From assembly GCA_963666345.1 (NCBI GenBank), contig OY762721.1:2464001-2528000 (forward strand): a DNA stretch of 64,000 nt, given 5' to 3'. Position numbers and translations under genes: made by a program. The stretch is from Desulfatiglandales bacterium (GTDB taxonomy: Bacteria > Desulfobacterota > DSM-4660 > Desulfatiglandales > Desulfatiglandaceae). Under the pieces are notes generated by a model. That model had not been told where the DNA came from. It worked only from the letters and a program-made list of their open reading frames with translations, and did no database searches. Within the stretch, counting starts at the first letter, position 1; each line of letters starts with the position of its first letter. Below, piece after piece: positions 2,730 through 26,025 of this stretch.

Positions 2730-2800
2730 AATACCCCGCCGGGGAACAGCGGGGTGTCAATCGATCCATGCCCGGCCTTCAATCATTTTGCCTGCGCAAA

Positions 2801-3201
2801 TTAGGCGGAAATAAGCTTAATAAGGGCCTCTGTACTCTTTTTGGCATCCCCAAAAATCAGGAGTGTCTGTTTTTCCCGGTATAAGGGGTTTTCCACGCCC
2901 GAATATCCCGGATTTTCATCCAGATTGAGTACCAGCACGTGTCTGGCCTGATGGGCCATGAGGATCGGCATGCCTGAGAGGGTGTGCCTTCGGTCTCAAT
3001 GGCCGCCGGGTTGACCACGTCGCATGCGCCGACTATCATTGCCGGATCGGTATCCTTGAACCGCGGGTTGATCTCATCCATCTCGATCAGTTTGTCGTAG
3101 GAGACCTCAGCCTCTGCCGAAAGCACGTTCATGTGGCCGGGCAACCATGCCGTAACCGGGTATGATGATGATACGGTTTGAAGACCTCAGAAGTTCAGCC
3201 G
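2801..3201 (-). pseudogene. Degenerate copy of the pntB 3' end (domain III fragment)
   Basis: DNA is near-identical to 21535-22034 including the stop region; has an ~110 bp internal deletion near 3144 and a 1-nt frameshift near 2980; no start. Confidence 0.92.
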
Positions 3202-3235
3202 TCCGAAAAAACAGAATAGAAAGTATACCTAAGAG

Positions 3236-7681: not shown

Positions 7682-8914
7682 CTAAACAATCCTGGGCTGA
7701 GGGAGAGGTATGATAAATTTTCCACCCTGTTTCCGGTATTCGGATTGCTCCCGCAGGATCTCTTTCTCAAAATTCCAGGCTAGAAGCAAAACGAAGTCGG
7801 GCATCTTATCTTTCAGCCTTGCAGGCGGAAATATGGGCAGATGATTGCCTCCCATGTAAAGGCCGTGCTTGACGGAGTTCAGGTCAACCACATAATCTAT
7901 CATATCCCTGTCAATTCCTATGTAGCTCAACAGGGTGGTTGCCTTGGCTGCGGCCCCGTAAGCCGCTATGCTCCTGCCTTCCTGTTTCAGACCCCGTAAG
8001 AGTTCCATCAGGGAATCGCGTGTATTGCGGACTCGTTCAGCAAAAGCAAAATAATAAGGCATCCTGTCTATCTGTTTGTCTTTTTCGATTTTTTTCAGCA
8101 GGCGGACGGTTTCACTGACATCCTTCCTGTGTCTCACGTAAAGGCGCAATGAACCGCCATGTATGGAGAGCTGTTTTATGTCGTTTAAAAAGAGATGGTG
8201 CCTTTCAAACAGACGGTCCAGCGCGGTAACGGAAAAATAGCAGAGATGCTGATGGTAAATCGTGTCAAATTCGCATTTTTCCATCAGATCAACTACGTAG
8301 GGCACTTCAATTACCGCGATTCCCGTTTTTTTAAGGATATTCCGAATGCCTTCCACAAAGCCGTTAAGATCCGGGACATGGGCCAGGACGTTGTTGGCGA
8401 TGACAATATCCGCGCGATACCCCTTCTCCCGGAGATTTTTAGAAAATTCTTTGTCAAAAAATCTGCAAAAGGTCTTGATTCCCTTTTCCCGTGCCGCCTC
8501 AGAAGGCCCTCCAGCTGGATCAATACCAAGAACGGGTATGCCCCTGTCCGCAAAATTCTTCAGCATATACCCGTCATTGCTGGCTATTTCGATAACCAGG
8601 CTTTCAGTGTTAAGTTTTTCTGACTTGATCAGGTCCTCCGCGTTTTCTTTTGAATGTTGAAGAAGCGTATTAGAGACGGAAGAGAAATAAGGGTATTTTT
8701 CATCAAAGAGAATTTCCGGGGGCACTGTTTCGGTAATCTGTACCAGTGTGCACGCGGGGCAGAAAACCAGATCCAGGGGAGCGGTAAGTTCGGGTTTGTT
8801 TAATTGTTCCGATGTGAGCAGCCGGTCGGCCAGAGGTGTGCGGCCAAAGGAGATGATTGATTTAAGGCCGGTAAGTCCGCATGAGCGGCAGGTTAGGTCG
8901 GATACGATCGGCAT
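7682..8914 (-). CDS. NDP-hexose 3-C-methyltransferase family protein (3)
   Basis: [57 protein letters not shown]; start chosen at MPIVS. Confidence 0.9.
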
Positions 8915-8933
8915 ATATTTTTCAGGGTTACCT

Positions 8934-9980
8934 CTAACTCTTGAGAGGCCTTCCCTGTCCTTTCCAGCGCAGAGTGCTGTCCAGAAGGCCTTCATTCAGA
9001 AGCTTCTTGACATGATCAATGCGCTTGTATCGCGGTCCCTCGAAATCTTCCAGACGAATAGATGTTTTCTTATAAGCTTCGTATAGTTGTCTGGCCCCCC
9101 GGCGGGCGTTCCACCTGGGCTTGAATTCGGGAACGAGCGTTGCGAGTTTGCCGCAATCAACTCTATAGCACCTTTTGTCAGGGCCGGCGTCTCCGGCATA
9201 TTCTATCCGGCAGTCAGGTACGGTTTTTTTCACTATCTCGGCCAGTTCTATGATCTGATAGTTCTCCCCTGTATCACCCACATTAATGGCCTGATTGTGA
9301 ACCGTTTCCCGCCGTGCTTTAAGCACTGCCGCAAAGGCGTTTGATATGTCTTCCACATGCACGATCGGACGCCAGGGAGTGCCGTCGCTTTTCAGGTGCA
9401 CATTGCCGGTGGTAAATGCCCAGGCCACCAGATTGTTGAGCACGAGGTCAAAACGTAAATTCGGTGATACGCCGTAAGCGGTGCCGCTTCTAAGAAAGGT
9501 GGGGCTGAAACGGGAGTCGGCCAGCCTTGATATGTCCTGCTCAACCAGTACCTTTGAGCGGGCATAGGGCGTTACCGGACAAAGATCCGTCTCCTCATTC
9601 AGGAATTCATTCCCGGCCGCTCCATAGTTGCTGCAAGAAGATGAAAAAAGGAACCGCTTGACCCCGACTTTTTTTGCCATCCCGGCCAGGCGGACAGCGG
9701 CATGGTAATTGATTTCATAGGTCAATGTCGGATTCAGATTCCCCAGGGGATCATTTGATAAACCTGCCAGATGTACTACCGCTTCAAATCCCTCCAGATC
9801 AGAGGCCTGGATGTCCCGAATGTCTTTTTTTACGTAAGGGATTTCACGGCCGGGTCTTCCAAAGGTGCATTCCTCAAACAGATTACTGTCCAGGCCCTTT
9901 ACCGTATGGCCCTCTTCTAGAAGGATCGGGACCAGAACTGTTCCTATATAACCTTTGTGGCCGGTTACCAGTATGCGCAT
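8934..9980 (-). CDS. NAD-dependent sugar epimerase/dehydratase (extended SDR)
   Basis: [35 protein letters not shown]; true start at 9980. Confidence 0.9.
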
Positions 9981-14775: not shown

Positions 14776-16164
14776 CTATGGAGTGCTCTTTTTTATAAAG
14801 GCTGGTAGGAATATCTCCCAGGGAAATTCATCAGCTAAACTATATTTCCACAATTGATTGCCTGTTCCATATTGGGGTGAAAAGAAGAGCGTCCCGTTCA
14901 CATCGGTAAGGTATGAGGGATTACTGCCTTCAGTACCTGGTACTATGTCCTTTACCAATGTGGTTGAGGCCTCATCATATGCGGGGCCTTCACACTGCCA
15001 GAGCTCAGATCCGTTAGTGCCGTCATTTGCTTCGAAGAAAAGTGTGCCGTTTACATCGGTAAGGTAACTGGGATAACTATCTCCGCTGGTGTTTATATCC
15101 TTGACCATAGTGGCATCAGTATAGGGGCTTTCACTTTTCCAGAGTTCATAGCCGTTAGTACCGTCATCTGCTCTGAAGAAGAGTGTCCCGTTTACATCGG
15201 TAAGGTAACTGGGATAACTATTTCCGCTGGTGTTTATATCCTTGACCATAGAGGCATCAGTGTACGGGCTTTCACATTTCCAGAGTTCATAGCCGTTAGT
15301 GCCGTCATTTGCCTCGAAGAAAAGCGTGCCGTTTACATCGGTAAGGGAATTGGGAGAACTATTTCCGCTGGTGTTTATATCCTTGACCATAGAGGCATCA
15401 GTGTACGGGCTTTCACATTTCCAGAGTTCATAGCCGTTAGCGCCGTCATTTGCGTTGAAGAAAAGTGTGCCGTTGACAGCGGTAAGGTAAGTGAGATTAC
15501 TATTTCCGCTTGTGTTTATATCCTTGACCATAGAGGCATCGGTGTACGGGCTTTCACACTTCCAGAGTTCATAGCCGTTAGTGCCGTCATCTGCCTGGAA
15601 GAAGAGGGTGCCGTTTACATCGGTAAGGTTACTGGGATAACTATCTCCGCTGGTGTTTATGTCCTTGACCATAGAGGCATCGGTGTACGGGCTTTCGCAT
15701 TTCCAGAGTTCATAGCCGTTAGTGCCGTTGTCTGAGCTGAAGAGGAGCGTACCGTTTACATCGGCAAGGGAAGTGGGATGACTACTTCCGCTGGTGTTTA
15801 TATCCTTGACCATAGAGGCATCGGTGTACGGGCTTTCGCATTTCCAGAGTTCATAGCCGTTAGTGAAGTCATTTGCGTCGAAGAAAAGCGTGCCGTTGAC
15901 ATCGGTAAGATCGTCGGGAGAACTACTACCGCTTGTGTTTATATCCTTGACCATTACGGTGCCGCTCTCAGTCCCGTTGCTTTTCCACAACTCGTTACCG
16001 TATGAAGTTTCATTGTCGCCTCCGGTAAAGAAAAGGGTCCCGTCAACAGCGGTCAAGTTATAAGGGAATATCTCCTTGACCGGCACAGGTTCAGCCGTAT
16101 AAGCGGTCGCGGCGGATATGACAATAATCAGACCGGTTAAAAGACTTGAAATGGGTATTCGCAT
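14776..16164 (-). CDS. Secreted ELWxxDGT-type repeat (beta-propeller) protein, copy 1
   Basis: Signal peptide; 47-aa/141-bp repeats LT.VNGTLFF.A.DGTNGYELWK.ESPYTDASMVKDINTSG; C-terminal FPWEIFLPAFIKK tail. Confidence 0.9.
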   Translation of the reverse strand: MRIPISSLLTGLIIVISAATAYTAEPVPVKEIFPYNLTAVDGTLFFTGGDNETSYGNELWKSNGTESGTVMVKDINTSGSSSPDDLTDVNGTLFFDANDFTNGYELWKCESPYTDASMVKDINTSGSSHPTSLADVNGTLLFSSDNGTNGYELWKCESPYTDASMVKDINTSGDSYPSNLTDVNGTLFFQADDGTNGYELWKCESPYTDASMVKDINTSGNSNLTYLTAVNGTLFFNANDGANGYELWKCESPYTDASMVKDINTSGNSSPNSLTDVNGTLFFEANDGTNGYELWKCESPYTDASMVKDINTSGNSYPSYLTDVNGTLFFRADDGTNGYELWKSESPYTDATMVKDINTSGDSYPSYLTDVNGTLFFEANDGTNGSELWQCEGPAYDEASTTLVKDIVPGTEGSNPSYLTDVNGTLFFSPQYGTGNQLWKYSLADEFPWEIFLPAFIKKSTP

Positions 16165-16332
16165 TCCCGAGCCTCCTTATCATGATTACAAAGTAGGGTT
16201 CATTCAAACGAGCAGCCCTCAACCCCATTGACGTAAGATTTGAGAATATTATTTGAAAAATTTATCGAAGGGTCAGGCACATTTGGTACTTTCAGCGAAT
16301 AAATCATAAATGAAATGAGCATATTCTGTCAA

Positions 16333-16491
16333 TCAGGAAACAGATCGTCTGTCAGGCGTGTGCTGCTTTTTGAGGTCGACTATCCTGTTATAGAGCCAGC
16401 CGATGAACGCCCCTCCCAGGGTTCCCAAGGCGAAACCGTAGAAAAATCCGATAAAGCTGCCGACAAAGCTGACCCTGTAGCCTATGAAATA
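16333..16491 (-). pseudogene. Duplicated 3' half of the 119-aa membrane protein gene (duplication junction fragment)
   Basis: Nearly identical to 18145-18300; the 5' part of the called ORF is intergenic sequence from the duplicated unit. Confidence 0.85.
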
Positions 16492-16582
16492 GTGGGAAAG
16501 GGGAATGGTCAAACTTTTCTGCAAATGAAAAGGCAGTGCCGATTGCAGCACCGCCTTTGTCTCTATATGCCTTAATCGCTGT

Positions 16583-17974
16583 CTATGGAGTGCTCTTTTT
16601 TATAAAGGCTGGTAGGAATATCTCCCAGGGAAATTCATCAGCTAAACTATATTTCCACAACTTATTGCCTGTTCCATAATTGGGTGAAAAGAAGAGCGTC
16701 CCGTTCACATCGGTAAGGTATGAGGGATTACTGCCTCCAGTACCTGTTACTATGTCCTTTACCAATGTGGTTGAGGCCTCATCATATGCGGGGCCTTCAC
16801 ACTGCCAGAGTTCAGACCCGTTAGTGCCGTCATCTGCCTCAAAACAAAGTGTTCCGTTGACATCGGTAAGGTAGTAGGGATAACTACTGCTGCTTCCGGA
16901 GTAGATATCCTTGACCATAGAGGCATCGGTATAGGGACTTTCACTTTTCCAGAGCTCATAGCCGTTAGTGCCGTCATCTGCTCTGAAGAAGAGGGTGCCG
17001 TTGACATCGGTAAGGTTACTGGGAGAACTATTTCCGCTGGTGTTTATATCCTTGACCATAGAGGCATCAGTGTACGGGCTTTCACATTTCCAGAGTTCAT
17101 AGCCGTTAGCGCCGTCATTTGCGTTGAAGAAAAGTGTGCCGTTGACAGCGTTAAGGTAGCTGGGCGAACTACTGCCGCTGGTGTTTATATCCTTGACCAT
17201 AGAGGCATCGGTGTACGGGCTTTCACTTTTCCAGAGTTCATAGCCGTTAGCGCCGTCATTTGCCTTGAAGAAGAGCGTGCCGTTTACGTTGGTAAAGTAG
17301 TCGGGATAACTATCTCCGCTTGTGTTTATATCCTTGACCATAGAGGCATCGGTATACGGGCTTTCACTTTTCCAGAGTTCATAGCCGTTAGTGCCGTCAT
17401 CTGCTCTGAAGAAAAGGGTGCCGTTGACATCGGTAAGATTGTAGGGATAACTACTCCCGCTGGTGTTTATGTCCTTGACCATAGTAGCATCAGTATAGGG
17501 GCTCACACATTTCCAGAGCTCATCCCCGTTAGTGCCGTCATCTGCCTTGAAGAAGAGCGTCCCGTTTACGTTGGTAAGGTAGTCGGGAGAACTACTCCCG
17601 CTGGTGTTTATGTCCTTGACCATAGTGGCATCAGTATAGGGGCTCACACATTTCCAGAGTTCATAACCGTTAGTGCCGTCATTTGCATGGAAGAAAAGTG
17701 TGCCGTTGACATCGGCAAGGTAGCCGGGATAACTACTCCCGCTGGTGTTTATGTCCTTGACCATTACGGTGCCGCTCTCAGTCCCGTTGCTTTTCCACAG
17801 CTCGTTACCGTATGAAGTTTCATAGTTGCCTCCGGTAAAGAAAAGGGTCCCGTCAACAGCGGTCAAGTCATAAGGGTATATCTCCTTGACCAGCACAGGT
17901 TCAGCCGTATAAGCGGTCGCGGCGGATATGACAATAATCAGACCGGTTAAAAGACTTGAAATGGGTATTCGCAT
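16583..17974 (-). CDS. Secreted ELWxxDGT-type repeat (beta-propeller) protein, copy 2
   Basis: Same architecture as copy 1 with identical signal peptide and C-tail but different repeat loops. Confidence 0.9.
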   Translation of the reverse strand: MRIPISSLLTGLIIVISAATAYTAEPVLVKEIYPYDLTAVDGTLFFTGGNYETSYGNELWKSNGTESGTVMVKDINTSGSSYPGYLADVNGTLFFHANDGTNGYELWKCVSPYTDATMVKDINTSGSSSPDYLTNVNGTLFFKADDGTNGDELWKCVSPYTDATMVKDINTSGSSYPYNLTDVNGTLFFRADDGTNGYELWKSESPYTDASMVKDINTSGDSYPDYFTNVNGTLFFKANDGANGYELWKSESPYTDASMVKDINTSGSSSPSYLNAVNGTLFFNANDGANGYELWKCESPYTDASMVKDINTSGNSSPSNLTDVNGTLFFRADDGTNGYELWKSESPYTDASMVKDIYSGSSSSYPYYLTDVNGTLCFEADDGTNGSELWQCEGPAYDEASTTLVKDIVTGTGGSNPSYLTDVNGTLFFSPNYGTGNKLWKYSLADEFPWEIFLPAFIKKSTP

Positions 17975-18144
17975 TCCCGAGCCTCCTTATCATGATTACA
18001 AGGTAGGGTTCATTCAAAAGAGCAGCCCTCAACCCCATTGACGTAAGATTTGAGAATATTATTTAAAAAAATTTATCGAAGGGGTCAGGCACATTTGGCA
18101 CTTTCAGCGAATAAATCATAAATGAAATGAGCATATTCTGTCAA

Positions 18145-18504
18145 TCAGGAAACAGATCGTCTGTCAGGCGTGTGCTGCTTTTTGAGGTCGACGATCCTGT
18201 TATAGAGCCAGCCGATGAACGCCCCTCCCAGGGTTCCCAAGGCGAAACCGTAGAAAAATCCGATAAAGCTGCCGACAAAGCTGACCCTGTAGCCTATGAA
18301 GTACTGACTAAGCAGTCCCAGATGAGGGCCTACAGGTTCACCCCCCTTGATTACGAGCCAATTTGTGGCCGCAAATATGGCGAATCCGCACAGGAGCCCC
18401 AGAACCAGGCCAAGGGCCTTGGCATTAAACCTTAGAACGCCGCTGAACAGTTTCTCTTCTTCCCGCGCATTTCCATTTTTTTCCATCTTAAGGCCTCCTG
18501 ACAT
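18145..18504 (-). CDS. Small 2-TM membrane protein, homologous to the C-terminal domain of the upstream oxidoreductase
   Basis: ATNWLVIKGGEPVGPHLGLLSQYFIGYRVS vs ATIWLVIKGGDVVGPNLRLLSQYFIGYTVT. Confidence 0.85.
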   Translation of the reverse strand: MSGGLKMEKNGNAREEEKLFSGVLRFNAKALGLVLGLLCGFAIFAATNWLVIKGGEPVGPHLGLLSQYFIGYRVSFVGSFIGFFYGFALGTLGGAFIGWLYNRIVDLKKQHTPDRRSVS

Positions 18505-18515
18505 TGTAAGCCGGT

Positions 18516-20288
18516 CTAGAAATGATCAAAGAAATCTTTAATGGATAAAAGTTCCGCCTTCCTTTTAACCCGATAGATGAAAAAGGCAAGAAACAGGTTC
18601 CTGAGATATGCAAACAGCCAGCCGAACAAGAACCCCCACAGGAACCCGTAGCCGGAGGCGATGAATGCCCCTTTTGCCGTCACTGTGTAGCCTATGAAAT
18701 ACTGGGAAAGAAGCCGTAAATTGGGGCCGACAACGTCACCCCCTTTTATAACCAGCCATATGGTTGCCATAAAAAAAAGCAGCCCTGAGAAAGACCCCGA
18801 AGCAATGGCAAAGGCCGGATTATCTATCCTTGCAAATGTCCTGGCGAGGATTTTTTCGGCTGAACGCGTTTGAGCTTCGGTTTTCTTGCCCTTCTCGACA
18901 TATTCATGATCGTCCGTCACATCCCACAGGTCATGCTTTCCCCCGAAGATGTTTTCCACTGCCAGCATTCCTGTGAGCATGGAGTGGTCCATGTTATTAT
19001 AGCGGTGCATTCCGTTACGGCCGATGGTCTGAAGATTTTTGACGGTTTTAAGAAAGGTTCGAATAATCCGAACCTGTTCATTATACCCTTGGTCATAAAT
19101 CGGATATGCGTTCGGCTGGCGCAGCACAATACCGTCTTCTACCTCTCCGTTATCGGCAAGACCCAGTTTTGTGAGTTCCAGAGATGCGAGTTCAAGTAAC
19201 TGAGAATCTGTCATTGTCCAGGTACTGTCCCCTCTGGAGCAGAAATACTCCATGCCTATGCTTGTCTTATCGGGATCGGGGACCATGGCATCGCTCCAGT
19301 TCTTGAAGTTCTGTATCCGGCCCACTTGCACGTCGGGACTGTGTACGTATATCCACTGGTCAGGAAACATGTCACGCCTGTTTATTATGAGCCCCACGAT
19401 AATGAAGGACCTGTACGTGAGATGGGAACCCGCCTCAAGGACCTCATCCGGGATTGCCGGCTCAAAAAGCCCCGTAAGTTCAGGAAGCGGGATGCTGGAG
19501 ATGAGACTGCCAACCGGCATTTCTACATGCCTTCCGCCGTTCAGAAAGATGACGCTTGTTATAAGGCCGTTTTCATGCCTCAGTTTAACGGCCTTTGAAT
19601 CAAGCCTGATTTCTCCCCCGCCCGCCTGTACAGCCTCCTTAAAACTATCCCACATCATTCCCGACCCATTTCCGGGATACAAGAATTCATCGGTGAGGGA
19701 CCTGTGCCTTTGGCTTCCGAAAAGGGCATTGGACAGGGCTGCTATGAGCGACAGTTTCCTTATGCGCTGTGCGGCCCAGGCGGCATCTATCCTGTCACAG
19801 GGTATGCCCCACACCTTTTCCGTATAAGCCTGAAAAAACATTTTGTGGAGTCGTGAACCGAAGCGGTTGGTGACCCATTGTTCAAAGGTCCTTTCTTCCC
19901 TGCAGGGCCGGACCTGTGCTCTGAAGTAGCTCAAAAGGATAAGGGAACTCTCAATCAATCCCAGGTTCATGAAGGTATTAAGAAAATCAAGCGGGTAATT
20001 GAAAAGGCGGCCGTTGAAATTTATGCGGGAAAGTCTTGGGACCTTTATGAAATTATCGGGGAGGATTTCTTCCCAGAGCCGTTGCACACTGTCAAGCCTT
20101 GTGAAGAAACGGTGGCCGCCGATATCAAAACGATAACCTTTGTATGTCTCTGTCCTGGACAGACCTCCCACTTTGTCTGTTTTCTCCAGCACAAGGGGGC
20201 GGATGCCTCTTACGACCAGTTCATGGGCTGCCGCAAGACCCGCTGGACCGGCGCCGAGGATGACCACAGGTTCCCTTACCATCAGCAA
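18516..20288 (-). CDS. FAD-dependent oxidoreductase (HemY/UDP-galactopyranose mutase-like) fused to a C-terminal membrane domain
   Basis: ILGAGPAGL, VGGLSRT, FDIGGHRFF, YTEKVWG, GRNGMHRYNNMDHSM. Confidence 0.85.
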   Translation of the reverse strand: MLMVREPVVILGAGPAGLAAAHELVVRGIRPLVLEKTDKVGGLSRTETYKGYRFDIGGHRFFTRLDSVQRLWEEILPDNFIKVPRLSRINFNGRLFNYPLDFLNTFMNLGLIESSLILLSYFRAQVRPCREERTFEQWVTNRFGSRLHKMFFQAYTEKVWGIPCDRIDAAWAAQRIRKLSLIAALSNALFGSQRHRSLTDEFLYPGNGSGMMWDSFKEAVQAGGGEIRLDSKAVKLRHENGLITSVIFLNGGRHVEMPVGSLISSIPLPELTGLFEPAIPDEVLEAGSHLTYRSFIIVGLIINRRDMFPDQWIYVHSPDVQVGRIQNFKNWSDAMVPDPDKTSIGMEYFCSRGDSTWTMTDSQLLELASLELTKLGLADNGEVEDGIVLRQPNAYPIYDQGYNEQVRIIRTFLKTVKNLQTIGRNGMHRYNNMDHSMLTGMLAVENIFGGKHDLWDVTDDHEYVEKGKKTEAQTRSAEKILARTFARIDNPAFAIASGSFSGLLFFMATIWLVIKGGDVVGPNLRLLSQYFIGYTVTAKGAFIASGYGFLWGFLFGWLFAYLRNLFLAFFIYRVKRKAELLSIKDFFDHF

Positions 20289-21343
20289 GGCCCCTTCCTT
20301 TCCTTATCGGAATATTTTTTCGTGTCTTTTACCAGGCTTGAAGCTTCTGACCGGTTTCTCTTGAAATAGTGTCTGACAATGGCGGCGGCAAACGCGAGAC
20401 CGCCGTAAAGGTAGTAGAACCAGTGCCACGGTATCGCCTTCAAGGTAAACCACAGCCCGCGTTTTCTGAGGAAAAAGCCGTATAGCGATGAATTGAGCAT
20501 GAGCAGAGAAATGACTAGGGCGCCTGTTGTAAGAAGAAACCCGGGCCACCACACTGTTACTGCTAAGGAAACCATGAGCCCGTATGTCAGCACAACGCCC
20601 GCACGTTCTGAATAGCGAAGATTAAGGTCGCTTTTTGAAAATCGGTCTCTTAGTATCAGTTCCGACCATGGAAGTGCCCTGTCAAGGAAATCCGAGCTTA
20701 ATAATGATTTGGCTCCCCAGTGCTTGAAGTGCTTTACCTGTAAGGATTTAAGGAGCTTGATCCTGTACCCGGCCCTTTTAAGCCGGTAGCCAAGTTCTAT
20801 GTCTTCAATAGATGGCCGCCTGTAGGTCTCATCAAAACCACCCAGCTCCAGAAAAACATCACGGCGGATCGCGCCGCAGGCTCCCCAGAACGTGAAGGCT
20901 TCTTCTAGGCCTTTCTGGTGAACGTGATGATGAAGGAGATTTTTATACTGGGAAAGAAAGTTGGTCTCAGACGGCTCATCATCGTATGATCCGAAAATAG
21001 CGGCTAGGCTATGATCCTCTTGAAACACCCTTAGAATTATTTCAATGGCATCCCGCGGAACGGTCACATCAGCATCGACAAAAAAGAGGATGTCGCTCCC
21101 AGCCGAGCGCGCGCCCAGGTTTCGCGCCTTGGCAGGTCCTCCGGCGACCGATATCCTCAATACCCTGGCTCCGGATTCCTCGGCCGCGCGCCAGGAACCG
21201 TCAGTGTCGCCGTCCGCAACGGCGATGATCTCTTCCGGAGGAGTTTGGAGCGCTTCCAGGCTCGCTAGGCACTTCCGGAAATTTGATCCTCCCCTGTGTA
21301 CCGGTATGATTACTGAAATGGTCGGCTTTCTAGTAAAAGGCAT
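20282..21343 (-). CDS. GT2 family glycosyltransferase with C-terminal TM helices
   Basis: ISVIIPVH, GPAKARNLGA, FFVDAD, GGFDE, IEDIELGYRL, hydrophobic C-terminus. Confidence 0.92.
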   Translation of the reverse strand: MPFTRKPTISVIIPVHRGGSNFRKCLASLEALQTPPEEIIAVADGDTDGSWRAAEESGARVLRISVAGGPAKARNLGARSAGSDILFFVDADVTVPRDAIEIILRVFQEDHSLAAIFGSYDDEPSETNFLSQYKNLLHHHVHQKGLEEAFTFWGACGAIRRDVFLELGGFDETYRRPSIEDIELGYRLKRAGYRIKLLKSLQVKHFKHWGAKSLLSSDFLDRALPWSELILRDRFSKSDLNLRYSERAGVVLTYGLMVSLAVTVWWPGFLLTTGALVISLLMLNSSLYGFFLRKRGLWFTLKAIPWHWFYYLYGGLAFAAAIVRHYFKRNRSEASSLVKDTKKYSDKERKGPC

Positions 21344-21534
21344 AATCCAATAAAATTACTGAACACCGAAAAAGATACTCGTTTTTGCCAATGTGCCGGG
21401 TCGAGTTGCGATTATCTACAAGTTGTTAGACTTTTGCAAACTATAACTTCTTCAGCAATTCAAACAGATATCCTTGGTCATTAGGAACATCTCCACGAGG
21501 GTTCGAGCGAATTGTAGATATCTGTGAGATCCTC

Positions 21535-23490
21535 TTATGCGGAAATAAGCTCAATAAGGGCCTTTGTACTCTTTTTGGCATCCCCCGGAATCAGAAGGGT
21601 CTGTTTTTCCCGGTATAAGGGGTTTTCCACGCCCGAATATCCCGGATTTTCATCCAGATTGAGTACCAGCACGTGTCTGGCCTGATGGGCCATAAGGATC
21701 GGCATGCCTGAGATGGGGGTGCCTTCGGTCTCAATGGCTGCCGGATTGACCACGTCGCATGCGCCGACTATCATTGCCAGATCGGTATCCTTGAACCGCG
21801 GGTTGATCTCATCCATCTCGATCAGTTTGTCGTAGGAGACTTCCGCCTCTGCCAGAAGTACGTTCATGTGCCCCGGCATCCTGCCCGCCACAGGGTGTAT
21901 GGCGAATCTGACCTCTTTTCCCATCTGTTCAAGCATTCGGGCAAGCTGCGCCACGTTGAACTGTGCCCCGGCAAGGGCCATGCCGTAACCGGGTATGATG
22001 ATGATACGGTTTGAAGATTTCAGAAGTTCAGCCGCCCCGGCAAGGGGATCCTTGTTGTCCTCTTCGGGAACCTGCGAGCCGCTTTCGGTTGCAGCGGTTT
22101 CGTCAAATAGCGCCGACAGGATCCGGCCCACCGTATCCTTTGCGTTTCCTAAAAGCATGATTGCCCCGGCCTGACGGTACAGGGGATTTTCCACGCCCGA
22201 ATATCCCGGATTTTCATCCAGATTGAGTACCAGCACATGTCTGGCCTGATGCGCCATGAGGATCGGCATGCCTGAGATGGGGGTGCCTTCGGTCTCAATG
22301 GCCGCCGGGTTGACCACGTCGCATGCGCCGACGATCATTGCCAGATCGGTATCCTTGAACCGCGGGTTGATCTCATCCATCTCGATCAGTTTGTCGTAAG
22401 AGACTTCCGCCTCTGCCAGAAGTACGTTCATGTGGCCGGGCATCCTGCCTGCCACAGGGTGTATGGCGAATGCGACCTCTTTTCCCATCTGTTCAAGCAT
22501 TCGGGCAAGCTGCGCCACGTTGAACTGTGCCCTGGCAAGGGCCATGCCGTAACCGGGTATGATGATCACCGATCGGGCCTGACTTACTGCCCGAACAGCC
22601 GCGGCAAAAGGGTCTTCTTCGGCCGGCGGGATCATGGCCGGTTGCGCTGTGTGCCGGGGTGCTTTCTCCTGTTTCTCCGCTCCTTCAACAGGTTTTGAGT
22701 GAACGGGAATGAATACCCTGATGAGATTTCGGTTCATGGCCCGGCACATGACCAGCGTCAGAATGGAGCCTGAGGCAGCTACGGTCGCGCCGCAGGCGAT
22801 CAGAAGCCTGTTTTGTATAATGATGCCGCAAAGGGCCGCTGCCAGCCCTGCCGTGGCATTTAAAAAAGAAATGAGCACCGGCATATCGGCCCCTCCGATC
22901 CTTATGGAAAAGACAATGCCCAGGAGCATGGAAAAACAGATCAGGAGGATCAGCAGGGAAGATGTACCGCTGAAAGAGGGGATCGCCGCCATTATCCCGA
23001 TCGCGACAATCAAAAGGAGGTTGCCCTGAATGAGTCGGTCGTGTTTCGGCAGGACAGTCGGTGTCTGTTTTAGTTTGTTTGCAAGTTTTCCGCAGGCGAT
23101 CATGCTTCCGCTGAAGGTGGCCGCTCCCACCACAAGACCCATAATCCCTGCCACGGTTCCCACTTCGGAAATCTCCGCAGTGTGGCGGGATAATTCAAGG
23201 AAAGAGACCAGGAAGGCTGCAACACCCCCTGCTCCGTGCTGAAAGGCCACCATGGCGGGGATCTGGATCATGCTGACCCGCATGGCCACAATCCACCCCA
23301 AAGCCGAACCGATTGCCAGGGCGGCTATAACGATCCCCGGGTCCAGGATGTCGTTGCGGTAAAGGACCAGAAACAGGGCGCACAAAAGGGCGAACGCGGC
23401 GGTGAGATTTCCCGCCCGCGCCCCCTTGGGGGCGCGGAACATTCGTATACCGATAATGAGAATGAAGATAACGATCAGATCGATGATCAT
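21535..23490 (-). CDS. pntB: NAD(P) transhydrogenase beta subunit with tandemly duplicated domain III
   Basis: TFSGS..A.GKL, IGGADMPV.IS.LN; two copies of IIPGYGMA...AIHPVAGRMPGHMNVLLAEA...DVVNPAA. Confidence 0.93.
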   Translation of the reverse strand: MIIDLIVIFILIIGIRMFRAPKGARAGNLTAAFALLCALFLVLYRNDILDPGIVIAALAIGSALGWIVAMRVSMIQIPAMVAFQHGAGGVAAFLVSFLELSRHTAEISEVGTVAGIMGLVVGAATFSGSMIACGKLANKLKQTPTVLPKHDRLIQGNLLLIVAIGIMAAIPSFSGTSSLLILLICFSMLLGIVFSIRIGGADMPVLISFLNATAGLAAALCGIIIQNRLLIACGATVAASGSILTLVMCRAMNRNLIRVFIPVHSKPVEGAEKQEKAPRHTAQPAMIPPAEEDPFAAAVRAVSQARSVIIIPGYGMALARAQFNVAQLARMLEQMGKEVAFAIHPVAGRMPGHMNVLLAEAEVSYDKLIEMDEINPRFKDTDLAMIVGACDVVNPAAIETEGTPISGMPILMAHQARHVLVLNLDENPGYSGVENPLYRQAGAIMLLGNAKDTVGRILSALFDETAATESGSQVPEEDNKDPLAGAAELLKSSNRIIIIPGYGMALAGAQFNVAQLARMLEQMGKEVRFAIHPVAGRMPGHMNVLLAEAEVSYDKLIEMDEINPRFKDTDLAMIVGACDVVNPAAIETEGTPISGMPILMAHQARHVLVLNLDENPGYSGVENPLYREKQTLLIPGDAKKSTKALIELISA

Positions 23491-23546
23491 ATTTATCCTT
23501 TCAGGTTGTATCCGGCCTTGACCCGGAGTTTAAAATGAGCCGGATT

Positions 23547-23858
23547 TCAGGCCTCCTTTTTGATCTCAGGGCCTTTGTCCTGTTTTGCTTTAAACAGGCG
23601 CACCATGCGATCCGTGATCACGAAACCCCCTACCAGGTTGAACGCGGCCATAACAAGGGCTACGGCGCCTATGATCTTGTCGCCCGTGGTGGTCACGACC
23701 GAAAAAAGGAGGAGCGCCCCCAGAATGGTCACGGCCGATATGGCGTTGGTCATGGACATGAGAGGGGTGTGCAGCAACGGCGGAACCCTGGAGATAAGGA
23801 GATACCCTATGATAAAGGCGAATAAAAAAACCGAAAGCATTAGAAAAAGATCGATCAT
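23547..23858 (-). CDS. pntAB: NAD(P) transhydrogenase alpha subunit part 2 (membrane)
   Basis: VPPLLHTPLMSMTNAIS, N.VGGF.IT.RM. Confidence 0.93.
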   Translation of the reverse strand: MIDLFLMLSVFLFAFIIGYLLISRVPPLLHTPLMSMTNAISAVTILGALLLFSVVTTTGDKIIGAVALVMAAFNLVGGFVITDRMVRLFKAKQDKGPEIKKEA

Positions 23859-23892
23859 GACGCAATCCTCTTAAATGTTGGAAACATCCTTT

Positions 23893-25053
23893 CTAAATTT
23901 CGCCCATTGCCTTGAGCGCGCCTTCAAACAGGATTTTGCCCTGGTATGTAACGAGAGAGGCCTTGGTGATTTCATCTTCCAGATCCATTGCATCAGGGCC
24001 TTTCTTGAAGAGGTTCTCCACATAATAGTACATGTTGTTGGCATACAGCCAGCTTGCGTGGACCGGCAGCCTGCCGGGTATGTTCTGCATTCCGCATACA
24101 TAGACGCCATGTTTTGTGTATTCATTGCCCGGTTGAGTTATCTCACAGTTTCCGCCCTGGTCGACTGATACGTCGATAATGACGGACCCGGGTTTCATGG
24201 CGGCAACCATCTCATCGGTGATCAGGACCGGGGCAAGTTCTCCCGGTACCAGGGCGCTCAGAATCAGGACGTCCGTTTCAGGCATCAGCGGGGTGAGGGC
24301 GGCTCGTTCCCTGTCAATCCACTCCCGGCTCAAGGCCCTGGCATATCCGCCTTTCCCGTGGGCCAGATCTTCAGGGACATCGAATCCCGGGATTTTGGCA
24401 CCCAGGGTTTCGGCCTGTCTTCGGGCCTCCTCACGAATGTCGACCGCCTTTACCACTCCGCCCAGGCGCTTGCCCGTGGCCAGGGCCTGGAGACCTACGA
24501 CGCCCGCGCCGATCACGAGAAAACCGGCCGGCTTGACCATGCCAATGGCCGTGCCGATCATGGGAATGAACTTGGGAAGGTTGTTGGCCGCGATAATGAC
24601 CGATTTATAACCGGTGAGCGTGCTCATGGAGGTCAGCGCGTCCATCCTCTGGGCCCGGGAGATACGGGGGATTCCGTCCATGGTAAAGGATGTGATGTTC
24701 TTGTCCCTGAGTTTGCGGATGATTTCATGGCTGCCGGGTGCTGCCGGGTGGAGAAAGGTGATAAGAGTTTTCCCCTCCGGGATCATATCCGCCTCATGCC
24801 GGCCTGTTTGTTCATTGAGACAGGGCTGTTTCACCTTAAGGATTATGCCCGCAGTGTTGAAAAGCGTTTCAGGATCCGGCGCTATCTTTGCTCCGGCCTT
24901 CTCGTATGCTTCATCCGTACAATAGATGCCTTCGCCTGCCGTTGATTCAACCACAACGTCAAATCCGAGTGCGACATATTTTTCGACCGTCTCAGGCGTT
25001 GCAGCTACCCTCTTTTCTTTCGGCATTACTTCCTTGGGAATTCCTATAATCAT
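23893..25053 (-). CDS. pntAA: NAD(P) transhydrogenase alpha subunit part 1 (domain I)
   Basis: IGIPKE...EKRVAATP, PRISRAQ.MDAL.SM, GAGVVGLQA, DVSVDQGGNCE. Confidence 0.93.
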   Translation of the reverse strand: MIIGIPKEVMPKEKRVAATPETVEKYVALGFDVVVESTAGEGIYCTDEAYEKAGAKIAPDPETLFNTAGIILKVKQPCLNEQTGRHEADMIPEGKTLITFLHPAAPGSHEIIRKLRDKNITSFTMDGIPRISRAQRMDALTSMSTLTGYKSVIIAANNLPKFIPMIGTAIGMVKPAGFLVIGAGVVGLQALATGKRLGGVVKAVDIREEARRQAETLGAKIPGFDVPEDLAHGKGGYARALSREWIDRERAALTPLMPETDVLILSALVPGELAPVLITDEMVAAMKPGSVIIDVSVDQGGNCEITQPGNEYTKHGVYVCGMQNIPGRLPVHASWLYANNMYYYVENLFKKGPDAMDLEDEITKASLVTYQGKILFEGALKAMGEI

Positions 25054-25123
25054 TTTTTGCCTCCGTTCTATGTTAGAGATAGACTACCCAAGCCCGGAAG
25101 GTCCCGGGTCCGGGAAATAGTTT

Positions 25124-25576
25124 TCAAGGTTGTTCCGGGTAAAGTATCCATTTACCTTTGGCCTTCATCACCATAAAGGAATCGGTGGAACGGATTCCCC
25201 CCACCTGCGGAAGGGCGTCCGCAAGAAAATCATAGAGCCCGGGCATGCCACCCGTTGTCACCACCTCGACCATGATATCGTAGTTACCGGTTACCACGGC
25301 CGCCCAGTGAATCTGGTTCAGTTCGGATATCTGATCGAGCTTTTCATCCAGTTCCTGATGCCTTTCAAGGCATATCCCCACAATGGCAACAGTGAGTTCC
25401 TTGCTTTTAAACGCGTTGACAAGGCCTGCCACGCGCAGGACCCCGGAGCGGAAAAGGGCGTCAAGACGGGCGCGGACAGTGGGCGGGGTAATATCGAGAC
25501 TCTCTGCAATTTTTCCCACGGGCATCCGTCCGTCCCGGGTAAGGAGATTGATCAGACCCTTGTCCAGGGGATCCAT
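25124..25576 (-). CDS. Lrp/AsnC family transcriptional regulator
   Basis: MDPLDKGLINLLTRDGR...IAESL.ITPPTVRARL, VTGNYDI; start chosen at MDPLD. Confidence 0.9.
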   Translation of the reverse strand: MDPLDKGLINLLTRDGRMPVGKIAESLDITPPTVRARLDALFRSGVLRVAGLVNAFKSKELTVAIVGICLERHQELDEKLDQISELNQIHWAAVVTGNYDIMVEVVTTGGMPGLYDFLADALPQVGGIRSTDSFMVMKAKGKWILYPEQP

Positions 25577-25872
25577 CTCTCTTTCTTTCTCTTTCAACGG
25601 CAGCCTCCAAAGCAAAAAATAAGGGTCTATTATTTCTAATAGCATAAATAGCAGTAGAAAAATATTCTGATAAGAAGAATGTAATGTCAAGAAGTTTTTA
25701 TTGCCAGGCCGGAATGATTGTCAACAGGTGAGATAAGTTAATTTAAGCAGGGGTAAGCCGTAGAGGCCTCCTGTTTTGTAATGCCATGTGAATTAAGAAG
25801 CGGTTGCGCCGGTTTGGCGAGCAATAATTCCGCTGCCGGTCAGGGGGGCAAAAACTTGGTGCCTTTTCCAGG

Positions 25873-26025
25873 CTGGTGTTCGTCCATAAATCAGGATTTA
25901 TGGACGAACGCTGTCAGCAATCGGCTGTCAGTAAAACATTCGTAATATCAACTTATCGGCTGCCTGCCGATAGCTGACGACTGAAAGCGGTATCCTGAAG
26001 TGATAAATTTCCGGATGGGTACTGG
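25873..26025. repeat. Palindromic MITE/REP-like intergenic element
   Basis: Perfect 15-bp inverted repeat at 25878-25909, internal GCTGTCAGC/GCTGA-type inverted units, imperfect terminal IRs CTGGTGTTCGTCC and GGATGGGTACTGG. Confidence 0.6.

Follow-up and report, generated by a model that had tools for sequence, protein, structure and literature searches.

A branch of the PntB transhydrogenase subunits that carries an N-hydrophobic-D motif in place of the KRS motif of domain III

Here we describe a pnt operon of the transhydrogenase family found in a 64,000-nucleotide stretch of a Desulfatiglandales genome (hereafter the window), and in particular its pntB gene, whose product holds two tandem copies of the nucleotide-binding domain III (dIII) that both lack the K-R-S/G motif of canonical PntB and read N-L-D in its place. 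Four adjacent minus-strand genes make up the locus, namely an Lrp/AsnC-type regulator, pntAA (encoding domain I, dI), pntAB and pntB (whose membrane part is domain II, dII), with pntAA and pntAB encoded beside pntB on the same strand. Sequence comparison shows that the operon encodes an intact, selected, ion-coupled transhydrogenase-type complex in which the cationic phosphate clamp of dIII has given way to an N-hydrophobic-D motif that is uncharged or acidic. Within dIII the adenosine sub-site is rebuilt, and the nicotinamide and pyrophosphate contacts, the dI site and the membrane coupling residues are kept. The features of the locus are as follows.

21535-23490, minus strand: pntB, an open reading frame of 651 residues with the membrane domain dII and two tandem dIII; matches to PF02233 and to PntB/NNT chains of the Protein Data Bank (PDB).
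22705-23490, minus strand: dII membrane domain, residues 1 to about 262, aligned to dII of Escherichia coli and Thermus thermophilus, with H85, GGADMP 199-204 and N211.
22108-22605, minus strand: dIII copy 1, residues 296-461, joined to dII by a linker; from alignment to solved chains.
22213-22224, minus strand: N423-L424-D425-E426 of copy 1, aligned at E. coli K424-R425-S426-M427.
22321-22323, minus strand: C390 of GACD in copy 1, aligned at the E. coli N391 position.
22042-22107, minus strand: acidic linker of 22 residues (462-483) between the dIII copies, from the translation; the copies diverge here.
21538-22041, minus strand: dIII copy 2, residues 484-651, from alignment and an AlphaFold2 model.
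21649-21660, minus strand: N611-L612-D613-E614 of copy 2, from alignment.
21757-21759, minus strand: C578 of GACD in copy 2, from alignment.
23547-23858, minus strand: pntAB (alpha2), 103 residues, four transmembrane helices; PF12769 (PNTB_4TM), 98.9 bits.
23893-25053, minus strand: pntAA (dI), 386 residues, a canonical NAD(H) domain; PF01262 and PF05222 (AlaDh_PNT_N, AlaDh_PNT_C).
25124-25690, minus strand: Lrp/AsnC-type regulator upstream of pntAA on the same strand; Pfam and NCBIfam.
2800-3213, minus strand: partial and decayed repeat of the pntB 3' end (dIII copy 2), with a 1-base and a 98-base deletion.

The pntB product matched Pfam PF02233 (PNTB) over two stretches with 731 bits, far above the cut-off of 31.7, and scored 544.2 bits against the NCBIfam equivalog NF006974 (Re/Si-specific NAD(P)+ transhydrogenase subunit beta), which lies below that model's cut-off of 689. 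By Pfam it is a PntB, but with this score and without the KRS motif it does not count as a demonstrated NAD(P)+ transhydrogenase. That the KRS motif of dIII specifically binds the 2'-phosphate of nicotinamide adenine dinucleotide phosphate (NADP(H)) is established from dIII crystal structures. An earlier note, made from the DNA alone, had claimed that both dIII copies contain GACDVVNPAA and VLVLNLDENPGYSGVENPLY, and this reading is borne out by HMMER alignments to solved PntB and NNT chains, which are gap-free through the motif region. In these alignments N-L-D-E takes the positions that are held by K424-R425-S426-M427 in E. coli PntB (9l76_C), by K-R-G-Q in T. thermophilus (4o9u_B) and by K-R-S-L in ovine NNT (6qti_A), and the Cys of GACD matches the Asn of GAND (E. 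coli N391). The replacement of the basic phosphate-binding residues by neutral or acidic ones, also claimed earlier, holds as well: the net charge of residues 424-428 (E. coli numbering is used for dIII from here on) is -2 in the window protein versus +2 or +3 in canonical dIII, and position 428 is Asn in both copies. Y315, H345, R350, D392 and Y431, which line the nicotinamide and pyrophosphate side, are identical in both copies to those of E. coli. In PMC9529548, K424, R425 and S426 of E. coli PntB are named as the 'KRS motif' of the NADPH site.

We found that this change is not peculiar to the window. Residues 290-651 were searched against 5.8 billion proteins, and the best 120 matches, which were taken, are all proteins with 2-4 dIII copies; all 435 of their motifs start with Asn, and all but one of these 435 have Asp two residues later. 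One dIII copy was also searched exhaustively against 1.84 billion cluster representatives, which gave 4060 relatives at E <= 0.001; the best 150 of the 4060 fell into two discrete motif types, N-x-D and K-R-S/G, and the N-x-D type also included proteins of ordinary length (460-516 residues) with a single dIII. To describe the two types column by column we pooled the in-register, unique dIII copies from both protein searches and from a genome motif scan, giving 188 N-type and 74 K-R-type sequences. Position 424 is Asn in 188/188 of the class and Lys in 74/74 canonical copies; position 425 is Leu, Phe or Tyr in the class and Arg in all 74; and position 426 is Asp in 99% of the 188, as against Ser (80%) or Gly (19%) in the canonical set. 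The net charge of residues 424-428, which is +2 or +3 in 74/74 canonical copies, is zero or negative in 178/188 of the class. Positions 319, 401, 404, 427, 440, 446 and 448 also depend on class, and position 423 is Cys in 82% of the class and Leu in 7%, the window belonging to the latter in both copies. G314, Y315, G316, H345, R350, G389, D392, N395, G430, G433 and N436, by contrast with these class-dependent columns, show little or no variation in either class, and position 431 is Tyr in 99% of the class and Tyr or Phe in canonical copies. No intermediate or reversion between the two motif states was present among the 262 unique dIII.

The phylogeny agrees with a single split. In a FastTree phylogeny of 294 dIII copies the motif state changed once. 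Moreover, a quick IQ-TREE search (LG+G4) over dII and the first dIII of 112 PntB thinned to below 72% identity, made with the motif columns and position 391 removed, separated 88 N-type from 24 K-R-type rows by one branch with a support of 96 in the Shimodaira-Hasegawa-like approximate likelihood ratio test (SH-aLRT); the split is unrooted, and either motif may be the ancestral one. The window protein was placed within sets of 12, 21 and 26 rows made up wholly of class members, and by its motif and its position on the N-x-D side of the branch it belongs to the class. The loss of the clamp is a fixed trait of a deep class and neither decay nor a quirk of a single genome, and since the same replacement is fixed across the whole class a chance origin of the motif is not an issue. 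GACD is another matter. Position 391 is Asn in all canonical copies and Asn (54%), Cys (38%) or Ser (9%) in the class, so that GACD is a subclade trait. The suggestion that the NLDE/GACD variant forms a conserved clade therefore stands for the N-x-D motif, with its one branch of SH-aLRT 96, and not for GACD.

The remainder of the complex looks ordinary. Over residues 2-376 the window dI could be aligned to Rhodospirillum rubrum dI (1f8g), and it has kept the R-Q-D loop, D205 and the GGYA mobile loop; D205, the aspartate to which the adenosine ribose of NAD(H) (nicotinamide adenine dinucleotide) is bound, is found together with the loop R, Q and D in 45/45 class operons. The long list of dI columns that differ between the classes is uninformative, as it rests on just 4 canonical dI from 20 upstream stretches. 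In dII the retention of FQH, GGADMP and FLN, the third claim of the earlier note, was confirmed as H85, GGADMP 199-204 and N211, and H85, D202 and N211 align with the coupling residues bH91, bD213 and bN222 of E. coli. Among 92 class members GGADMP is present in 92 and N211 in 90, and the bH91 position holds Asn in 84 and His in 8, the window being one of the latter. An AlphaFold2 model of dIII copy 2 had a mean predicted local distance difference test score of 92.3 and the dIII fold, its nearest solved chain being 4j16_C (Z 28.8, root-mean-square deviation 1.8 A over 167 residues, 49% identity). The next folds were sirtuins (Z 12-14), middle domains of thiamine enzymes and the alpha subunit of electron-transfer flavoprotein (ETF-alpha, Z 9.0-9.2).

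Set beside the known systems, the window operon has the same three-gene layout as PntAA/PntAB/PntB of T. thermophilus (4O9U, 4J16) and R. rubrum (dI 1F8G). T. thermophilus has Asn at the bH91 position like most class members, where the window has His, and it carries K-R-G/S and one dIII where the window has N-L-D and two. The best-scoring solved relative by sequence is E. coli PntAB (9L76, EC 7.1.1.1; E 5e-86), whose Y315, H345, R350, D392, Y431, bH91, bD213 and bN222 are all matched in the window; the differences are N/L/D for K424/R425/S426, Cys for N391 and a split alpha subunit. The concentration of the changes at the adenosine end of the site raises the thought that dIII binds a non-redox adenine nucleotide, such as adenosine diphosphate ribose, a coenzyme A (CoA) derivative or similar, and that the complex is a regulated channel or sensor without hydride transfer. 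Some precedent comes from PMC13635403, by which E. coli dIII can bind palmitoyl-CoA via its adenosine 3'-phosphate and pyrophosphate. However, the nicotinamide-side residues and the hydride-transfer loop of dI are invariant in the class, which would be unexpected without hydride transfer, and we consider this explanation improbable.

Could the gene simply be decaying, or its second dIII be an artefact of assembly? The two copies share 300 bases at 95% identity at a spacing of 564 bases, and their proteins are 84% identical over 162 residues, with the first and last helices strongly diverged. In the FastTree phylogeny each copy has the other as its closest neighbour (92% over 140 columns), and next come single-dIII proteins of an uncultured bacterium (L058) and of a Planctomycetia genome (L049). 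Over a 130-codon core, from PGYG to NPLYR, 13 codons differ synonymously and 2 non-synonymously, corresponding to a non-synonymous rate (dN) of 0.010 and a synonymous rate (dS) of 0.171 (dN/dS about 0.06); because dN is far below dS in this core, both copies are under purifying selection and are maintained. A decayed or artefactual gene would find some support in the broken partial 3' copy 18.7 kb away, in an operon that was probably acquired (0/40 relatives have PntB, see below) and in the frameshift of one class member, L030, in a metagenome-assembled genome. Against this, the frame is open over 651 codons; the low dN/dS speaks for function; and the copies differ at 5% of their bases, which argues that they are not a collapsed or expanded repeat. 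Contigs from public runs (X1 record 3 and X2 record 10) bridge the copy junction without differences, although they stem from one sample that is possibly the source of the genome itself; short read contigs break inside the dIII repeat, and the junction between the copies is what is bridged. The same architecture and motif moreover recur in 121 loci of other genomes among the matches listed. We rejected the pseudogene or artefact explanation on the open frame, the low dN/dS, the divergence of the copies, the bridged junction and the class-wide recurrence, and regard it as very improbable indeed. The possibility raised earlier, that the substitutions are unique to this genome and accompany decay, falls with the same loci and with the purifying selection between the copies.

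Some observations attach to these copies. Runs X1 and X2 hold a second contig set that is about 90-93% identical over parts of pntB (within 21988-23600; 14 to 18 differences in 180-219 bases), so that this sample may contain a related strain or a second allele. None of the public runs listed for the locus is an RNA run. The decayed copy at 2800-3213 derives from the last ~500 bases of pntB, to which it is about 96% identical; its 98-base deletion takes out the HPVAGR region, and methyltransferase-like genes adjoin it. In the Gemmatimonadota metagenome-assembled genome with L030 the class pntB (about 7900-9400) is split over three frames, which could be a pseudogene or an assembly error, and the canonical pntB of that genome (L167) is intact.

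Tandem dIII are common in the class. Of 59 complete class genes 39 have one dIII, 10 have two, 7 have three and 2 have four, one being unmatched to the anchor, and in 26/44 proteins with several dIII the copies group exclusively with those of their own protein, a pattern that speaks for duplication or homogenisation having occurred repeatedly. In an evenly drawn sample of 401 genomes from the window's phylum PntB was present in 33, canonical in 27 and of the class in 6 (the window's genome included), with both in none; tandem dIII occurred in 1/27 of the canonical and 5/6 of the class genomes. Tandem dIII are not exclusive to the N-x-D class, since one canonical gene also has two: locus L154 (G350:C5:11850-14000) encodes a K-R-S PntB with two tandem dIII.

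The class is widely spread. When one genome per species was scanned for DNA that could encode N-x-D-x-x-P-G-[YF]-x-G-V-x-N, by means of a degenerate pattern, at least 122 stretches matched, and among the matches listed, to which the following counts and groups refer, 121/121 loci contain a true dIII by tblastn and the order pntAA-pntAB-pntB is kept in 56/56 loci with enough flank. By record titles they include sulfate reducers (Desulfobacterales, Desulfovibrio), Bacillota (Oscillospiraceae, Christensenella, Syntrophomonadaceae, Halanaerobiaceae, Dethiobacter), Bacteroidota (Bacteroidales, Porphyromonas), Treponema and Mobiluncus, and further Planctomycetes, Acidimicrobiia, Thermoleophilia, Gemmatimonadota, Verrucomicrobiota and Anaerolineae. 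In a second phylum 155/301 genomes had a PntB match, a count that takes both motif classes together; bit scores separate the classes uncleanly, one N-x-D protein scoring 558 and canonical ones 572 and above.

Taken together, these data lead us to a tentative reading, to which we would give a little less than an even chance, that the dIII pocket of the class is of NAD(H) type and that recognition of the adenosine end has changed. NADH bound to dI would still hand its hydride to a nicotinamide dinucleotide bound to dIII, with the transfer coupled to ion movement, and dIII would no longer pick its dinucleotide by the 2'-phosphate. We read the pocket in this way because the invariant Asn and Asp after the beta strand, together with a hydrophobic residue where Arg had stacked on the adenine, would be a pattern suited to a free 2',3'-diol. 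In dinucleotide folds an acidic residue at such a position is the usual discriminator of NAD over NADP. Sirtuins and the C-terminal domains of ETF-alpha share the fold superfamily of dIII with different chemistry, and bind NAD+ or flavin adenine dinucleotide (FAD), neither of which has a 2'-phosphate. The ETF-alpha of locus L024 reads V-N-S-D-P after its beta strand, an instance of the N-x-D/E of sirtuins and ETF-alpha that we take to be an adenosine-ribose motif, with a putative residue correspondence to dIII.

Several points weigh against an NAD(H)-type pocket. Foremost, dI is specific for NAD(H) across the class; were NAD(H) to exchange freely on dIII as well, there would be no net reaction, and a gradient-coupled version would only leak; for this reason NADP(H) bound in a new way is nearly as likely. 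When a class dIII profile was aligned with the L024 ETF-alpha in hhalign, only the N-terminal part matched (E 0.13) and the motif region stayed unaligned. Lys stands at position 428 in 63% of the class and could reach a phosphate, although the window has Asn there. In 20 genomes reached through class loci the class enzyme is the sole PntB in 16. The gene neighbourhood adds to this: among 148 flanking open reading frames of the 276 at 56 loci (126 second or third neighbours and 2 others were left out) no conserved partner gene of the operon emerged, the neighbours being variable, and those that recurred were mostly linked to amino acids, with aminotransferases at 8 loci, Lrp/AsnC regulators at 3, and glutamate dehydrogenase, sigma-54 activators and amino-acid kinases at 2 each. 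At one locus (L086:2916-4238, plus strand) pntB is followed, about 50 bases on and in the same orientation, by a GdhA-like glutamate dehydrogenase, which scored higher against NADP-specific solved enzymes (582 and 567 bits) than against an NAD-specific one (534 bits); this fits an ordinary NADH/NADPH role.

The enzyme may thus quite possibly still be an NADH/NADP(H) proton-translocating transhydrogenase that recognises the 2'-phosphate another way: by the Asn amide and backbone, by Lys or Arg at position 428 where present, by a divalent cation bridging Asn and Asp, or by an Asp hydrogen-bonded to a protonated phosphate. The enzyme would then differ in affinity, pH dependence or preferred direction and might, for instance, oxidise NADPH and so build up a gradient in bacteria that ferment amino acids. 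NADP(H) use is the only reading with a complete and thermodynamically sensible reaction, and it agrees with the retention of all catalytic and coupling residues, with the many genomes in which the class enzyme stands alone and with the Lys at position 428; the amino-acid neighbours and the NADP-like glutamate dehydrogenase give it a small push. It has to contend, however, with the loss of both residues that are invariant in canonical dIII and the near-fixation of Asp, with a segment charge that is -2 in the window and seldom positive in the class, with Asn 428 in both window copies, with the changes at the adenine-side positions 440, 446 and 448, and with the absence of intermediates or reversions. 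Furthermore, a canonical K-R-S/G PntB is present beside the class enzyme in 4 of the 20 genomes (Mobiluncus, a Planctomycetaceae genome, Mariniphaga and a Gemmatimonadota genome), and this coexistence argues against simple redundancy. The idea of the earlier note, an ion-coupled enzyme whose second substrate is not NADP(H), is partly supported, namely in the loss of the motif and the intact coupling residues and dI; the change of substrate is neither proved nor disproved.

Were the pocket of NAD(H) type, the dIII nucleotide would be retained as a bound hydride carrier for a third partner, or another couple would be used, both of which are speculative. The former can be put more exactly: the dIII domains, one to four per beta subunit, might hold NAD(H) or another dinucleotide without a 2'-phosphate as tethered hydride carriers, for which we propose a likeness to tandem lipoyl or acyl-carrier domains, and the ion-coupled machine would use NADH at dI to reduce an acceptor that is not NADP+. 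We regard this as unlikely, although if true it would mean a new reaction for a textbook enzyme family across many phyla.

Transhydrogenase serves as a model of the coupling between ion gradients and chemistry via nucleotide binding, and to our knowledge K424 and R425 are treated as fixed by specialists. Either the class binds NADP(H) in a new manner, which would bear on affinity, direction and gating, or its substrate is a different one, and gut, oral, sediment and digester bacteria would then carry out a new bioenergetic reaction; the domain concerned is the soluble dIII of 19 kDa, and both outcomes would be new. Public annotation names the class genes NAD(P)+ transhydrogenase, a name that carries an assumption on the substrate. 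We found no description of a PntB class without the KRS motif or of a PntB with multiple dIII in the full-text literature, whose coverage leaves out subscription papers on dIII mutagenesis, and the accessible parts of PMC7614955, PMC13635403, PMC9529548 and PMC5742237 hold nothing on the class. The N-hydrophobic-D PntB are a large, previously undescribed branch of the transhydrogenase family that spans many phyla of mostly anaerobic lineages.

As to the origin of the window operon, a PntB match was found in 0/40 close relatives, 24 from its family and a further 16 from its order, and the window's own genome has no PntB other than this one apart from the broken fragment. The G+C content is 0.51-0.55 across the pnt region (20001-26000) versus 0.47-0.49 just downstream (16001-20000). 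The operon was probably acquired horizontally, since close relatives lack it, and the G+C shift fits this as well.

Just downstream of pntB, beside a family-2 glycosyltransferase, a 119-residue membrane open reading frame (18145-18504, minus strand) repeats the C-terminal membrane tail of a 590-residue FAD amine-oxidase-like protein (18516-20288, minus strand), the common tail reading WLVIKGG..VGP.L.LLSQYFIGY. Further on, at 16583-17974 on the minus strand, lies a 463-residue, secreted-looking protein with about nine near-identical repeats of about 45 residues (DGTNG-x-ELWK ... VNGTLFF).

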